A DNA stretch of 7,160 bases from a virus (Duplodnaviria; Heunggongvirae; Uroviricota; Caudoviricetes): IMG/VR virus record IMGVR_UViG_2671180680_000012. The stretch is one strand, 5' to 3'. Positions 582-6,147 of the stretch are shown piece by piece. The notes beneath the pieces are model-generated. The model ran no database searches, had not been told where the DNA came from, and saw only the letters and a list, made by a program, of their open reading frames with translations. Numbering within the stretch: position 1 is the stretch's first letter; each line of letters opens with the position of its first letter. The position numbers were made by a program, and so were the translations under genes.

Positions 582-1171
582 TGGATTCGTTACAGGATGA
601 TTATACAAAGCTGCTGTACGGACTGATGCCGCCGGGGCCTGCATGGTCAGATACCGACGGTGTACTTGACGGTCTGGCACCATCGCTTGTGCGTGTTCAC
701 CAGCGGGCTGATGAACTGGTGATTGAAATCGATCCCGGTCAGTCCACAGAGCTGATTGAACGTTATGAAGAATTGTATGGTTTACCTGATTCCTGTTCCC
801 CTGTCGGAACCCAGACATTACGCCAGCGTCAGCAACGTCTTGAAGCAAAAGCCAATGTGGCTGGTGGCATAAATGAGCAGTTCTTCCTGGATCAGCTTGA
901 GGCGCTGGGATATACCGGCGTAACGATCGAACAGTTCCAGCACTTGGATGCAAGCCCCGATCCGGAATGGGGAGATCGCTGGCGTTATTTCTGGCGTGTG
1001 ACGTTGCCGATGGATGCCGGTGCTCAGTGGCAGACATGCACGGACGCCTGCAACACACCGATCCGGACGTGGGGGGATACGGTTGCGGAGTGCGTGATTA
1101 ATAAATTATGTCCGTCACACACCGTCGTTTTATTTTCCTATCCAGATGAGGATGAAGATGCACAGGATTGA
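581..1171 (+). CDS. Phage tail/baseplate protein, P2 gpI / Mu gp48 / YmfQ-like (DUF2313-type)
   Basis: 196-aa ORF. N-terminus MDSLQDDYTKLLYGLMPPGPAWS...ELIERYEELYGLPDSC matches the pattern I recall for YmfQ/DUF2313 tail proteins. SD AAGGAG at 569-574, 6 nt before ATG 581. Start overlaps the J stop as TAATG (579-583). Confidence 0.8.
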   Translation: MDSLQDDYTKLLYGLMPPGPAWSDTDGVLDGLAPSLVRVHQRADELVIEIDPGQSTELIERYEELYGLPDSCSPVGTQTLRQRQQRLEAKANVAGGINEQFFLDQLEALGYTGVTIEQFQHLDASPDPEWGDRWRYFWRVTLPMDAGAQWQTCTDACNTPIRTWGDTVAECVINKLCPSHTVVLFSYPDEDEDAQD

Positions 1172-2198
1172 TACGCTGACTGCGGTAAAAGATAAGTTTG
1201 GTCCGGGTAAGAACGGATTTACTGACGGAAATCTTCGCACAGGACGTCTTGCTACCTGGCTGAACAGTGCCATGTGGAATGCCATTCAGGAGGAAATCTG
1301 TGGTGTCATTGAGAAGGCCGGGATAGAACTGAATAAAGAAGAACACGACCAGCTATATAAGGCTATATTATTGCTGGTGGGCGGTGCAATTAACGAAGAG
1401 GCATTGCTGATAAAAAATAACCTTTCGGATGTGGAAGACAGGGATGAGGCTGTTGAAAACCTCGGATTAAAACCCACGGTGGATAAGGCAAAAAATGCCG
1501 TTCAGCGTGATGGCGACACCATGACCGGAGAGCTGAAAATCCGTGGTGTTAATGCGCTGAGGATTTTCAACGAAGCTTTTGGCCTGATTTTTCGTCGTTC
1601 GGAAGAGTGCCTGCACCTTATTCCCACCAGTGAAGGTCAGGGGGAAAATGGCGATATTGGTCCCCTGCGCCCGTTCACCATTAATCTGCGGACGGGTGAA
1701 ATATCCATGTCGCATAAAGTGTCTGTTGGCGGTGGTTCGCAGGTCAATGGTGCGCTGGGTATCGGCGTTCAGAACGCCCTGGGGGGGAATTCAATTGTTC
1801 TTGGTGATAATGACACCGGATTCAAACAGAATGGTGATGGCCTGCTGGATGTTTATGCCAATAGCGTGCATGTGTTGCGTTTTCAGAGTGGCAGTATCCA
1901 GAGTAATAAAGCTGTAAACGTTACAGGACGGGTAACACCGTCAGACTACGGAAACTTTGATGCCCGTTACCAGCAGCGAAATGGTGGCGTGCAGGATGTG
2001 CGGTATGGTTATGAAATGTATTACACCCCCGGCAGTAACACCGTTTCGTGGACATTTCGCTCACCTTCGGGACACGGGCTGTCAGGGATATCGATATCGG
2101 ATACCGGCCGTAACTCAGCGGATAACGTCAACGGCGTGTATTACCGACCGCTGCAAAAACTGATTAATGGCACCTGGTATAACGTAGCGAGTATTTAA
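1158..2198 (+). CDS. Tail fibre protein, chimeric: Mu S/e14 Stf-type N-terminal domain fused to a P2 gpH-type C-terminal receptor-binding region
   Basis: ORF open from 1146. Start ATG 1158 preferred because GAGG 1148-1151 lies 6 nt upstream; ATG 1146 and 1152 are alternatives. N-terminus has WLNSAMWNAIQEEICGVIEKAGIELNKEEHDQLYKAI. Downstream has NAVQRDGDTMTGEL, then NALGGNSIVLGDNDTGFKQNGDGLLDVYANS and terminal LINGTWYNVASI, which closely resemble what I recall of the P2 gpH C-terminus. Overlaps the upstream gene by 14 nt. Confidence 0.85.
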   Translation: MHRIDTLTAVKDKFGPGKNGFTDGNLRTGRLATWLNSAMWNAIQEEICGVIEKAGIELNKEEHDQLYKAILLLVGGAINEEALLIKNNLSDVEDRDEAVENLGLKPTVDKAKNAVQRDGDTMTGELKIRGVNALRIFNEAFGLIFRRSEECLHLIPTSEGQGENGDIGPLRPFTINLRTGEISMSHKVSVGGGSQVNGALGIGVQNALGGNSIVLGDNDTGFKQNGDGLLDVYANSVHVLRFQSGSIQSNKAVNVTGRVTPSDYGNFDARYQQRNGGVQDVRYGYEMYYTPGSNTVSWTFRSPSGHGLSGISISDTGRNSADNVNGVYYRPLQKLINGTWYNVASI

Positions 2199-2769: not shown

Positions 2770-4038
2770 ATGTCTGTAGTGATATCAGGTGCGCTGACTG
2801 ATGGCGCAGGCATCCCCATGTCCGGATGCCAGATTATTCTGAAATCCCGTGTAAACACCTCAGAAGTGGTGATGCGTACCAGGGCTGATGTAGTGACCGG
2901 AAATAACGGTGAATATTCGTTTGAGGCACAGGTCGGAAAATATTGCGTGTATCTGAAACGGGACTGGCGCGACGAGTACTGTGTTGGCGACATTGCTGTA
3001 TACGACGACTCAAAGCCCGGCACGCTGAATGACTTTCTGATTGCTCCTGATGAGGGCGACCTGAAACCGGATGTCGTCAAACGCTTTGAGGAAATGGTGG
3101 CGCAGGCGCAGCAGAGCGCCGGGGCCGCAGCCGGAAACGCACAGCAGACGGCGCAGGATGTGGCGGCAGCCGCAGGTTATGCCCGCGCAGCAGAGCAGGC
3201 CAAAAATGACATTGATGCTGCGCTGACCGGCACTCTGAAAACGGCTAACCATCTGTCTGAAATCGCAGCAGCAGGCGAAAAGGCACAACAGAAGTCCCGG
3301 GATAATCTGGGGCTGAAAAGTGCGGCCACGATGGAAGCACAGAGCGACATTTACGACCGGACAAAAGGCCGTCTGGCGATACCCGGCGCATTCGGCTTTG
3401 GGTGTGCTTTTCTGCCTGAAGATGTTATCCGTTTTGACACTAAGAGTGATTTCCTGGCCTGGGTAAGGAATGCGCTGCCAGGTGAATATTCCGTTGCTGG
3501 CCCCTACGACATCATCATACCCGACACACGGTTTGAAGGGGTGCTCAGCATCCGGTGGACTGATGCACGCCCTGAGACAACAGAACCGAGGTACAGAGCC
3601 AAATCCCTTACTTTTTACGGCATTAACGGCCCCATTTATCACACCCGCTACTGCTACTGGCCCATATCCAGACTGACTGGCTGGGTGAAAATAAATATAA
3701 CCACAGAAGATATTATTTACAGAATCGTGGCGAGCTCTGTCTGCAACAGATGGGGAGACCCTGACATTGGCGGGCTGATTATTGCTGCGTACCAGGGAGA
3801 AGCTGACGGTGATAAAGTCATCAGACTTGTCAGGGGGCAGTCATACAGAGGCTCACGACTGGGACCGGTGGGGATTTCAGTGCCCAGTACTCCCACCGGA
3901 ACGTATATAGCATCCCCACAATTTTTCATTACGGGATGTTCAGAGCATTCATTACCGGGGTCATATAGCGCCCTGTCCGGGGTGCCGGATGCTCATGTCT
4001 CTGGCGCAATGCCCGGGCTTTTTATTCGCACATCGTGA
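2770..4038 (+). CDS. Side tail fibre protein with lambda Stf-type N-terminal domain (Phage_tail_N-like), Ala/Gln-rich stalk and an unrecognised C-terminal domain
   Basis: 422-aa ORF. N-terminus MSVVISGALTDGAGIPMSGCQIILKSRVNTSEVV...VYDDSKPGTLNDFL parallels the lambda Stf N-terminus as I recall it (MAVKISGVLKDGTGKPVQNCTIQLKA...VYEDSQPGTLNDFL). Followed by an AQAQQSAGAAAGNAQQTAQDVAAAAG low-complexity stalk. Weak SD GAGAAA before ATG 2770. Confidence 0.8.
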   Translation: MSVVISGALTDGAGIPMSGCQIILKSRVNTSEVVMRTRADVVTGNNGEYSFEAQVGKYCVYLKRDWRDEYCVGDIAVYDDSKPGTLNDFLIAPDEGDLKPDVVKRFEEMVAQAQQSAGAAAGNAQQTAQDVAAAAGYARAAEQAKNDIDAALTGTLKTANHLSEIAAAGEKAQQKSRDNLGLKSAATMEAQSDIYDRTKGRLAIPGAFGFGCAFLPEDVIRFDTKSDFLAWVRNALPGEYSVAGPYDIIIPDTRFEGVLSIRWTDARPETTEPRYRAKSLTFYGINGPIYHTRYCYWPISRLTGWVKINITTEDIIYRIVASSVCNRWGDPDIGGLIIAAYQGEADGDKVIRLVRGQSYRGSRLGPVGISVPSTPTGTYIASPQFFITGCSEHSLPGSYSALSGVPDAHVSGAMPGLFIRTS

Positions 4039-4048
4039 GGAATGCACC

Positions 4049-4876
4049 GTGGAAATTAAAAAAATCATTAATCCCCGTTATACCGAAAGTGGCGCAGTAG
4101 ACTGTGACGTTTTTTTTGACGACAGGGACCAGGCAGTCCCCTACACAGCCACCGCTGATGATGTCGCACCGACGGGTCAGCGAATCTGGCAGGAACTGCA
4201 AAGTGGCAAATGGGGTGAGATAGCCCCATTCACTGTGACACCAGAAATGCTGGAAGCGGCCAGAGAGGCCAGACGTCAGGAAATTGAAGCATGGCGCACA
4301 GAACAGGAGGCGAAGCCGTTCACGTTTGAATGGAACGGTCGTATCTGGAATGCTGGCCCCAACTCACTGGGCCGCCTGTCCCCGGTAGTCATGCTGGCAA
4401 AATCTGTCACAGCACAAACNNNNNNNNNNNNNNNNNNNNNNNNNNNNNNNNNNNNNNNNNNNNNNNNNNNNNNNNNNNNNNNNNNNNNNNNNNNNNNNNN
4501 NNNNNNNNNNNNNNNNNNNNNNNNNNNNNNNNNNNNNNNNNNNNNNNNNNNNNNNNNNNNNNNNNNNNNNNNNNNNNNNNNNNNNNNNNNNNNNNNNNNN
4601 NNNNNNNNNNNNNNNNNNNNNNNNNNNNNNNNNNNNNNNNNNNNNNNNNNNNNNNNNNNNNNNNNNNNNNNNNNNNNNNNNNNNNNNNNNNNNNNNNNNG
4701 ATGCCGATAATCAGCAGGTGAAACTGTCGATGCCGGAACTGGAAGAACTGGCGGCAGCAATGGTGCAGGCGCAGGTCGATCGCAACGATGAGATTTATCG
4801 CCGTCAGCGTGAAATGAAAGAGGAGCTGAGTGGTCTGGAGGATTTGGGAACAATTAGAGCGTTTGATGTTACGTAA
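4049..4876 (+). CDS. Putative tail fibre assembly/chaperone protein (assigned by position; interior masked by N-run 4420-4699)
   Basis: In-frame GTG 4049 with SD GAGG 4037-4040 eight nt upstream, directly after the Stf-like stop (TGA 4036-4038). The frame is continuous in register across the 280-nt N-run and ends at TAA 4874-4876, followed by a strong terminator. No recognised P2 G/Mu U N-terminal motif. The ORF-track start ATG 3989 would overlap the fibre gene by 50 nt and is less likely. Confidence 0.5.
   Translation: MEIKKIINPRYTESGAVDCDVFFDDRDQAVPYTATADDVAPTGQRIWQELQSGKWGEIAPFTVTPEMLEAAREARRQEIEAWRTEQEAKPFTFEWNGRIWNAGPNSLGRLSPVVMLAKSVTAQXXXXXXXXXXXXXXXXXXXXXXXXXXXXXXXXXXXXXXXXXXXXXXXXXXXXXXXXXXXXXXXXXXXXXXXXXXXXXXXXXXXXXXXXXXXXXXDADNQQVKLSMPELEELAAAMVQAQVDRNDEIYRRQREMKEELSGLEDLGTIRAFDVT
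4420..4699. other. Run of 280 ambiguous bases (masked sequence or assembly gap) inside the putative chaperone gene
   Basis: Contiguous n characters. Reading frame is in register on both sides, consistent with length-preserving masking. Confidence 0.99.
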
Positions 4877-4973: not shown

Positions 4974-5222
4974 NNNNNNNNNNNNNNNNNNNNNNNNNNN
5001 NNNNNNNNNNNNNNNNNNNNNNNNNNNNNNNNNNNNNNNNNNNNNNNNNNNNNNNNNNNNNNNNNNNNNNNNNNNNNNNNNNNNNNNNNNNNNNNNNNNN
5101 NNNNNNNNNNNNNNNNNNNNNNNNNNNNNNNNNNNNNNNNNNNNNNNNNNNNNNNNNNNNNNNNNNNNNNNNNNNNNNNNNNNNNNNNNNNNNNNNNNNN
5201 NNNNNNNNNNNNNNNNNNNNNN
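4974..5222. other. Run of 249 ambiguous bases covering the predicted 3' 135 nt of ssrA and about 114 nt of the prophage/ssrA junction
   Basis: Contiguous n characters. Visible ssrA sequence begins at 5223, corresponding to tmRNA nt 228. Confidence 0.99.
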
Positions 5223-5664: not shown

Positions 5665-6147
5665 TTAACGGTGGGCGTTTTTCATGATACGTGCTTTATC
5701 CACCTGCCATTCGCGTTCTTTGATATCTGAACGTTTATCGTGCTGTTTTTTACCTTTGGCGACGCCGATTTTCACTTTGCACCAGGCATTTTTCCAGTAC
5801 AGGGAGAGCGCCACTACGGTATAGCCTTCTCGATTGACGCGACCGTACAATGAGTCCAGTTCGCGCTGGTTGAGAAGTAACTTGCGGGTACGGGTAGGAT
5901 CGCACACCACATGCGTGGAGGCCACGGCCATTGGCGTGATGTTAGCGCCAAACAGAAATGCCTCTCCGTCACGCAGAAGGACGTAGCTGTCGCTGATATT
6001 GGCTTTTCCTGCGCGCAGGGATTTAACTTCCCAGCCTTGCAGGGCAAGTCCCGCTTCGAACTCTTCTTCGATAAAGTATTCGTGACGGGCGCGCTTGTTA
6101 AGCGCGATGGTCGCTGAACCAGGTTTATGTGCTTTTTTCTTCGTCAT
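5665..6147 (-). CDS. smpB: SsrA-binding protein SmpB
   Basis: 160-aa [56 protein letters not shown]... matches E. coli SmpB as I recall it. Canonical position directly upstream of ssrA on the same strand. Confidence 0.96.

Follow-up and report, generated by a model that had tools for sequence, protein, structure and literature searches.

Does a tail-fibre gene in a Shigella sonnei prophage carry the remains of a host-range inversion switch? The window, meaning the whole 7,160-nucleotide stretch of DNA analysed here, contains a fibre gene (1158-2198; plus strand, as for every feature below) in which positions 1450-1475 read CTGTTGAAAACC-TC-GGATTAAAACCC, with the central TC at 1462-1463, and encode A98-V-E-N-L-G-L-K-P106. 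The initial annotation, made from the sequence alone, had described this stretch as a relic crossover half-site coding for VENLGLKP at the domain junction of a chimeric fibre, and its reading of the letters, the TC centre and the coding was accurate (codons 98-106). We conclude that the 26-mer is probably a decayed and no longer functional descendant of a Din-family (Gin/Pin/Cin/Hin) invertase crossover site; as such it is a genuine remnant, and the inversion system it comes from is well known rather than new.

The host element is a degraded prophage of the phiP27/SfV/ST64B/e14 type with a Mu-like tail. The 346-residue fibre is pieced together from anchor, linker, shaft and tip modules; it matches PHROG 6859 along its entire length (E=1.5e-209) and shows 83.5% amino acid identity to phiP27 L54; this match, together with synteny with gp47/gp48-like baseplate genes and a Caudo_TAP chaperone, places it among the phiP27 L54-type fibres. 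Directly upstream, and overlapping the fibre start, is a Mu gp48/YmfQ-type baseplate wedge gene (581-1171; Pfam PF10076, E=2.3e-25). Downstream lies an inactivated tail-fibre assembly chaperone gene (2201-2746), with a nonsense TAA at 2249-2251 where relatives read CAA and a Pfam Caudo_TAP match on the remaining ORF (2351-2746), followed by a second fibre gene of the lambda Stf/phage_tail_N type (2770-4038) that has its own RDNLGLKS motif (NLGL codons at 3304-3315). Besides the nonsense codon in its chaperone gene, the S. sonnei prophage is damaged by IS1. An identical fibre protein is present in S. sonnei 53G and many further genomes. The form of the ORF matters when encoding contigs are searched for: the 346-residue form (start 1158) leads to S. 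sonnei genomes, the 350-residue form (start 1146) to none.

The N-terminal baseplate-anchor domain (residues 1-74; 1158-1379) is common to e14 StfP (58% identity over residues 1-65, E=4e-22), ST64B Sb24 (52.5% over residues 1-117) and SfV orf21, and is shared distantly with Mu S (36% over residues 33-93, E=8e-8), in agreement with the resemblance to e14 Stf and Mu S proposed at the outset. PHROG families that match the fibre N-terminus stop between residues 69 and 128. A homologue search with the N-terminal 114 residues returned 25 matches, most of them to short or incomplete proteins, and contributed little to mapping the junction. An NNLSD motif is found at 1416-1430, and homology to P2-like collar fibres (L004 type) begins at about 1412, many records matching from query position 267/274 onward. 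Past the 26-mer, the shaft module (residues 107-192; 1476-1733) shares homology with the beginning of the invertible Sv cassettes found in Yersinia vB_YpM_23, Mu and SfMu (Sv'), with 53% amino acid identity over residues 79-296; inside it, GDTMTGEL (1512-1535) is a further mosaic junction (L006 junction at about 1521). The distal tip (residues 193-346; 1734-2198) is of the P2 H type, with 68-69% amino acid identity to P2-type fibres and a weak Pfam match to gp37_trimer. The fibre is indeed chimeric.

Compared with sites taken from sequence records, the 26-mer is identical at 16 of 26 positions to gixL, 16 of 26 to pixL (10 of 12 in the left half) and 15 of 26 to cix, and on alignment it is a positional homologue of Din sites. 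For a PWM we drew on 13 published enteric Din-family sites (hix, gix, cix, pix, mix, bix; PMC3241671 Table 3), which supplied 19 distinct half-sites. By this measure the left half scores 10.2 bits, where well-conserved natural halves score 8.8-15.6, and the right half scores 0.5 bits; the contrast between a site-like left half and centre and a degenerate right half had been recognized from the sequence. The right half is decayed even though it is the conserved half in every working fibre site. The core, AAACC TC GGATT, has one mismatch, but the 26-mer does not form two 12-bp halves fitting TTC...AAACC about a 2-bp centre: its outer triplets, CTG and CCC, depart from the consensus TTC/GAA, a misfit which, with that of the right half, counts against a relic. 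So does the score of the whole site. At 10.7 bits it is the top PWM score in the window, yet it is not significant alone, given four unrelated 26-mers of at least 10.5 bits in 101 kb of other loci and a chance expectation of about 0.3 per window (7 kb). What exceeds chance is the position, phase and codon choice of the 26-mer, not its PWM score.

Authenticated sites in homologous fibre genes occur at the same codon position and in the same phase: pixL occupies codons 93-101 of e14 StfP and the ST64B Sb24 site codons ~97-105, as compared with 98-106 here, and in all three the central dinucleotide supplies the second and third letters of the first Leu codon in NLGL/NVGL. The gixL of Mu-type S genes agrees in phase and position with the window 26-mer as well. 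Homology to invertible cassettes starts exactly at this point, for Mu-type cassettes and for P2 H. When the window is aligned to Mu-like phages on the central dinucleotide, in frame and ungapped on the right side, the left 33 nt match both vB_YpM_23 and Mu at 12 of 33 positions, that is, they are unrelated, whereas the right 63 nt match Yersinia vB_YpM_23 at 47 positions and Mu at 41. (The vB_YpM_23 record stops 163 nt past S', and gixR is absent from it.) The E. coli fibre L005, whose constant part is of the Mu Sc type (...PLFIENVGLKP), breaks at window position 1453: the sequence before it is unrelated, and that after it is 86% identical. BLASTP pairs window residues 99-347 with P2 H residues 376-670 at 33% identity, starting from the V of VENLGL, so that the C-terminal two thirds do resemble P2 H as first claimed; the resemblance is uneven, however, being close only in the last 154 residues (the distal 45%), and the stretch right after the site is Mu-Sv-like. 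Cassettes related to that of the window occur within bona fide invertible segments, beside gin/invertase genes, in SfMu and SEN8.

No invertase was found near the fibre gene. Searches by tblastn with Gin and PinE, in which the positive controls L011 and L014 were detected, gave no match in the window, in 21-kb loci from six S. sonnei genomes (10 kb either side) or in eight related loci (E. coli and phiP27 relatives, 4-8 kb of fibre flanks), and no adjacent serine invertase appears in any of them. The sequence AAACCNNGGTTT has a single match in the window at one mismatch or fewer, with no second site, and neither the window nor the 10 kb on each side in S. sonnei 53G has another site above 7.7 bits. 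A partner site is likewise absent from the 4-8 kb flanks of the close E. coli/phiP27 relatives. Nor is there an inverted partner or an inverted fibre/chaperone cassette in the window or the S. sonnei 53G flanks; the initial annotation had likewise seen neither invertase nor partner in the window. The second-best PWM match, AATCCGAAAACC GC GGAATAATATCA at 2231 in the chaperone gene (7.7 bits), was considered as a partner and ruled out by its different centre, direct orientation and chance-level score. Six S. sonnei loci, from 27 contigs read, are arranged alike from the tail genes to the end of the fibre module and differ downstream of it, with smpB in some and a second prophage in others; the break is not at the 26-mer. 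A pattern search of genome contigs for related loci produced pattern matches, none of them confirmed, and an exact 40-mer search there gave no match.

Contiguity of the N-terminal domain with the rest of the fibre in close homologues had been named at the outset as evidence against a recombination junction, and it is found in part. Identity is undiminished across the 26-mer in every one of the 66 E. coli genomes whose N-terminal homologue is close (at least 89% nucleotide identity), and module swaps fall downstream, at about 1698, 1878 and 1998; the join that does lie at the site is therefore of long standing and did not arise by a recent swap. For P2-like collar fibres the join falls about 40 nt before the 26-mer, at NLSDVED, and for another fibre family about 60 nt after it, at GDTMTGEL. 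Because NLSD and GDTMTG are also junctions, the 26-mer is not a unique recombination point. Its decayed right half is common to cassettes on three unrelated N-terminal types, so the decay came before at least some of the exchanges, and these may have come about without an invertase. The half-site form GGAYTRAAAYCC is limited to one cassette clade (window, phiP27, L004, L005), while the canonical cassette-side half GGTTTRNRRGAA is common to Mu, P1, P2, e14, ST64B, SEN8 and EC958 prophages, which by parsimony makes GGAYTRAAAYCC the derived form.

In working systems (e14 P-pin, Mu G-gin, SEN8), the invertase acts on two copies of the site in inverted orientation, cutting each at its central dinucleotide, and so changes which C-terminal cassette, and which chaperone, continues the constant part in frame. 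In this prophage family the site marks the boundary between a constant, baseplate-anchoring N-terminus and an exchangeable, receptor-binding C-terminus. The lineage of S. sonnei and phiP27 would have lost both the invertase and the alternative cassette, the cassette-side half-site may have drifted from GGTTTRNRRGAA to GGATTAAAACCC through two silent changes (GGT to GGA and the TTG/TTA codon choice) and others that replace QE/GE by KP, and the constant-side half was probably retained along with the ENLGL peptide. With cassette and invertase gone and the half-site decayed, the fibre would therefore be expressed in one fixed form. We infer that an ancestor of this lineage itself inverted, and that the 26-mer no longer binds an invertase; the more specific scenario offered earlier, of a once-inverting lineage fixed in one orientation when the fibre C-terminus was swapped, found no support.

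Could the peptide by itself account for the resemblance? The linker A-x-(E/Q/D)-N-L-G-L is common in fibres and its coding resembles AAACC-NN-GGTTT, so that a coincidence with no invertase history is conceivable, and the non-significance of the whole-site PWM score, the presence of RDNLGLKS after an NHLSE motif in the second fibre, and the fact that nearby conserved peptide motifs are likewise mosaic junctions all agree with it. The codons do not. NLGL in the window is encoded by AAC CTC GGA TTA, as against AAC CTC GGT TTA in gix, and the probability of AAC CTC GGN TTA given NLGL is 0.0035 under the prophage's codon usage; as an internal control, the NLGL at 3304 in the second fibre gene is coded AAT CTG GGG CTG, with no site-like DNA. 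The peptide therefore does not force site-like DNA, and the 26-mer is more similar to real sites than its peptide imposes. Since, in addition, DNA homology to genuine gix-flanked cassettes extends at least 63 nt rightward, and the N-terminal family holds switches at the same codon, working in e14 and fossil in ST64B, such a coincidence is unlikely. It seems similarly doubtful that the linker DNA is ancestral, with invertase systems built on it later and elsewhere, and that the phiP27/S. sonnei lineage never switched. Every known fibre-gene crossover site does fall in this same motif, and none of the phiP27-type relatives examined has an invertase, but ST64B demonstrates that invertase loss occurs in the family, and the wide sharing of GGTTTRNRRGAA argues for a relic over a precursor, a direction of change given by parsimony only.

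Another possibility, which we regard as very improbable, is that the 26-mer is a weak or quasi site still in use, which a Pin-type invertase elsewhere in the genome recombines with sites of other prophages to give inversions, deletions and fibre fusions. The left half is within the natural range, and hixR and several mix sites work with one degenerate half, at totals of 11-14 bits. Action in trans of invertases on the sites of another prophage has been inferred for EC958 Phi4 (PMC4134206), and the use of quasi-cix sites by Cin (Iida and Hiestand-Nauer 1987) is cited in the same paper; both count in its favor. However, natural sites with one degenerate half keep a TTC...AAACC-type half (11.5-15.2 bits), whereas the window keeps the variable, constant-side half, and that without the outer TTC. 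The lack of a partner within 10 kb either side, the shared gene order of the six S. sonnei loci with a downstream break away from the 26-mer, and a chaperone gene already dead also speak against continued use. Still harder to credit is the specific form in which a Pin-family invertase elsewhere in Shigella/E. coli genomes recognizes the 26-mer at low efficiency, occasionally fusing the anchor to other cassettes or causing deletions or inversions between prophages; if true, a quasi-site of this kind would offer otherwise dead prophage fibres a way to circulate again.

Read instead as a decayed crossover site, the 26-mer completes a graded series of loss within one prophage family, from the intact switch of e14, through the site and truncated invertase of ST64B, to the half-decayed site without invertase of phiP27 and S. 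sonnei. The series suggests how host-range inversion switches disappear, with the cassette-side half decaying first. That the cassette behind the decayed site is joined to three unrelated anchor types fits the long-held view that conserved linker motifs, and not invertases alone, mediate fibre module exchange. For annotation, such fibres are best described as "constant part + cassette", and a site that stands alone does not justify the label of a switch. The phenomenon is already known, and the finding raises no new question.

Among known systems, e14 P-pin of E. coli K-12 (stfP/ycfK, tfaP, tfaE, stfE', pinE; pixL/pixR) has, like the window, a YmfQ/Mu gp48 gene directly upstream of a fibre gene with a homologous N-terminal domain and a site at the equivalent codon, matching in the left half at 10 of 12 positions and encoding (L/V)ENLGL. 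Its pixL, CTCTCGAAAACC TT GGTTTGGGAGAA, encodes LENLGLGE. What sets e14 apart is an inverted partner site (pixR, at a distance of 1.8 kb), an alternative cassette and an intact pinE, all missing from the window; the right half of pixL also keeps the canonical form GGTTTGGGAGAA, and TT stands at the centre where the window has TC. ST64B shares with the window the N-terminal family, the site codon, a single fixed fibre with one chaperone, and the lack of a partner site. Its Sb24 site, TTCTCCAGAACG TC GGTTTAGGAGAA, is canonical at 26.4 bits, in contrast to the half-decayed 10.7 bits here, and downstream sb27 is a truncated invertase, a 73-residue fragment (Gin residues 127-173, 62%), where the window has no detectable invertase fragment. 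ST64B is an intermediate fossil, with a canonical site and a truncated invertase.

In P2, gene H (taken from the classical P2 record NC_001895) contains the crossover-like site TTATCGAATATC TC GGTTTACAGGAA, which encodes VIEYLGLQE and scores 21.1 bits. NC_070906, labelled "Peduovirus P2", has a different H gene without the motif and was set aside. As in the window, there is no invertase, the centre is TC, a Din-type site joins the protein's own N-terminal part to a Mu/P1-type C-terminal part, and the BLASTP alignment between the two fibres begins at the site motif; unlike the window, the P2 site is nearly intact and the N-terminal part is of an unrelated collar type. The crossover-like feature of P2 H was reportedly noted by Haggard-Ljungquist et al. 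in 1992, and such sites in fibre genes, P2 H included, are said to have been described by Sandmeier in 1994.

Mu G-gin, vB_YpM_23, SfMu and P1 C-cin resemble the window in that the S-gene site encodes (I/F)(Q)NLGL, the gix centre is TC, and the Mu/P1-type variable cassette, TVN(K/R)A.NAVQ..GD.(M/L)(T/S)G..., is homologous to the window fibre from residue 107 onward. They differ in possessing gin, a second cassette and a perfect pair of 34-bp inverted repeats, and the Mu-type constant part before gix is about 65 residues longer, with unrelated sequence just ahead of the site. L54 of the Stx2e phage phiP27 and its E. coli prophage orthologues carry an identical 26-mer. Their gene order is that of the window (gp48-like gene, fibre, chaperone, second fibre, DUF4376 gene), but phiP27 is intact and inducible, with an intact chaperone, whereas the S. 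sonnei copy is degraded.

Positions 1450-1475 read CTGTTGAAAACC TC GGATTAAAACCC, as the initial annotation had it, and code AVENLGLKP (codons 98-106 of the fibre gene). Authentic e14 pixL and pixR were extracted for comparison from the inverted repeat that bounds the P segment in the record, Mu gixL and gixR from the Mu record, and P1 cixL and cixR from annotated crossover points, with hix, mix and bix sites added from a published table of Din-family sites (PMC3241671). The 26-mer matches gix and pixL at 16/26 positions each and cix at 15/26; in the left half it agrees with pixL at 10/12. By a weight matrix derived from 19 distinct natural half-sites, the left half scores 10.2 bits (against 8.8-15.6 for natural halves that are well conserved), the right half 0.5 bits (against -4.5 to 5 for the degenerate outer halves found in hixR and in some mix sites), and the whole site 10.7 bits. 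No other 26-mer in the window outscores it, and four unrelated 26-mers in 101 kb from other loci reach at least 10.5 bits; because unrelated sequences score as high, the score alone is no evidence.

The likeness to crossover sites is nevertheless real when its position, codons and surrounding sequence are considered. The e14 StfP N-terminal domain is homologous to that of the window fibre (58% over aa 1-65), e14 pixL codes LENLGLGE at StfP codons 93-101, and in both sites the central dinucleotide forms the last two bases of the first Leu codon. The NLGL codons are AAC CTC GGA TTA in the window versus AAC CTC GGT TTA in gix, and the probability of AAC CTC GGN TTA, computed from the prophage's own codon usage, is 0.0035. 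The second fibre, from another fibre family, has the motif pair ...NHLSE...RDNLGLKS (3295-3320) in ordinary codons, its NLGL at 3304 being AAT CTG GGG CTG, which shows that NLSx...NLGL is a linker motif of fibres in general and that the DNA coding it can look unlike a crossover site. When alignments are anchored on the central dinucleotide, the window and the gixL regions of Mu and the Yersinia Mu-like phage vB_YpM_23 are unrelated on the left (12/33 each), while on the right they agree, in frame and ungapped, at 41/63 and 47/63 positions, respectively. By BLASTP against classical P2 H, window aa 99-347 pair with P2 H aa 376-670, an alignment that begins at P2's own site-like TTATCGAATATC TC GGTTTACAGGAA (21.1 bits). 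A third fibre type also has a junction at the site, an E. coli fibre whose constant part is of Mu Sc type (...PLFIENVGLKP) showing no relation to the window upstream and 86% identity downstream, with the break at 1453. In SfMu and SEN8, related cassettes sit in genuine invertible segments adjoining invertase genes.

In the G-gin, C-cin and P-pin systems, the invertase brings two inverted sites together and swaps strands at the central dinucleotide; inversion joins one or the other of two cassettes, in frame, to the constant anchor, changing receptor specificity. Mixed orientations have been observed in EC958 (PMC4134206). The window site is probably not a working one. The cassette-side half, GGTTTRNRRGAA, is the conserved half in every fibre-gene site examined, namely those of Mu, P1, e14, P2, ST64B, SEN8 and three EC958 prophages that invert experimentally (PMC4134206), and it is this half that has decayed in the window, where position 3 and the outer GAA triplet differ. 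The initial annotation saw neither an invertase nor a convincing partner site in the window, and our searches agree: the site is the only match there to pattern AAACCNNGGTTT at no more than one mismatch, every other 26-mer for 10 kb on either side in Shigella sonnei 53G scores 7.7 bits or less, and tblastn with Gin and PinE, which detected the invertases of control loci, found none in the window, six S. sonnei loci or eight related loci. The two gix copies in the SfMu locus (4763-4774 and 1688-1699) read one AAAACGTCGGTTT and the other AAAACCTCGGTTT; they differ by one base adjoining the centre, a difference that the SfMu authors suggested could hinder inversion of G (PMC4406740).

Many S. sonnei chromosomes encode the exact 346-aa fibre protein, e.g. 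53G (HE616528.1), in which an identical gene set adjoins smpB and the locus is 99.9-100% identical to the window outside N runs. Those runs (4420-4699 and 4974-5222) do not keep true length, 280 N standing for 16 nt in 53G and 249 N for 236 nt; the second spans the 3' part of ssrA, which E. coli records annotate there, and ARAGORN therefore reports no tmRNA in the window. In the right part of the window, smpB (5665-6147, minus strand), ratA and ratB are 99.7-99.9% identical to E. coli. The left part is a prophage end carrying the tail-fibre genes: a Baseplate_J fragment (183-581), a Mu gp48/YmfQ-type gene (581-1171), the fibre ORF (1158-2198), a Caudo_TAP chaperone gene (2201-2746), a second fibre of phage_tail_N type (2770-4038) and a DUF4376 gene (3989-4876). 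The nearest named phage, phiP27, shares this gene order, with 83.5% amino acid identity. Degradation of the prophage by an IS element shows at 1-84, an IS1 end that recurs inverted at another IS1 of S. sonnei 53G and that interrupts the baseplate J gene, leaving an ORF for its C-terminal fragment only. In the chaperone gene, codon 17 (2249-2251) is a premature TAA stop instead of the CAA (Gln) seen in phiP27 and in E. coli relatives; the frame is otherwise intact, and gene callers restart at ~2258 or 2351. The DUF4376 gene shares ~50 nt (3989-4038) with the end of the second fibre gene, is annotated at the equivalent position in relatives (e.g. 11055-11678 in E. coli FDAARGOS_944), and may encode the chaperone of the second fibre. 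FDAARGOS_944, the nearest match in the E. coli collection, has at 8059-9267 and 11858-13499 a fibre 57 aa longer, with a P2 H-like insert, and a frameshifted ipaH effector gene directly downstream of the prophage; this setting resembles Shigella, although the record carries an E. coli label.

The join at the site is old. In 66 E. coli genomes that carry a close homologue of the N-terminus, the match continues past the site to the query end. When identity among five relatives is binned, there is no step at 1462; modules are swapped in these relatives from near 1698, 1878 and 1998. The N-terminus is thus contiguous with the rest in close homologues, an outcome the initial annotation held to argue against a recombination junction, but cassette homology does start at the site. 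The linker contains other junctions as well: P2-like collar fibres in many records join ~40 nt upstream, at (K/N)NLSDVED, another family joins ~60 nt downstream, at GDTMTGEL, and PHROG match boundaries are likewise scattered (aa 92-128). The decayed right half, GGAYTRAAAYCC, is common to cassettes on three unrelated anchors (phiP27-type, P2-collar type and Mu-Sc type); therefore, decay predates at least some exchanges, which were more likely made by recombination, homologous or illegitimate, within conserved linker DNA than by an invertase. The C-terminal two thirds, initially described as resembling P2 gpH, do so closely only over aa 193-346 (68-69%), aa 107-192 being Mu-Sv-like.

ST64B Sb24 is 52.5% identical to the window fibre over aa 1-117, and sb24 carries a canonical site, TTCTCCAGAACG TC GGTTTAGGAGAA (26.4 bits; codons ~97-105; 4290-4315 of the ST64B locus). 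Downstream lies sb27 (7637-7858; 73 aa), which matches Gin residues 127-173 at 62%; the locus contains no partner site and no alternative cassette. A canonical site with an invertase fragment, lacking partner and alternative cassette, marks this locus of a well-known Salmonella phage as a fossil inversion switch. Together with the e14 homology, this means that the family includes a working switch (e14), an intact-site fossil (ST64B) and the present case, a useful by-product being a three-step decay series inside one prophage family (e14, ST64B, S. sonnei). From the e14 and ST64B members of this series, we infer that the ancestor of the S. sonnei/phiP27 lineage inverted. The opposite polarity, a proto-site that is precursor rather than relic, is less parsimonious. 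The window fibre is left with a single cassette, permanently fused, its ENLGL peptide retained as part of the fibre linker in DNA that has probably lost the features required for recombination.

Fibre genes without an invertase but with site-like sequences, such as P2 H, were noted in the early 1990s, and the P2 H sequence itself is confirmed here. Crossover sites within fibre genes have long been described and taken to mark the boundaries between modules (Sandmeier 1994 review, cited in PMC4134206). The window site differs from that of e14, where the switch works, and from that of ST64B, which is still intact while the window's right half has decayed; it is best read as another member of the class represented by P2, a site-like sequence in a fibre gene without an invertase, but a more decayed one.
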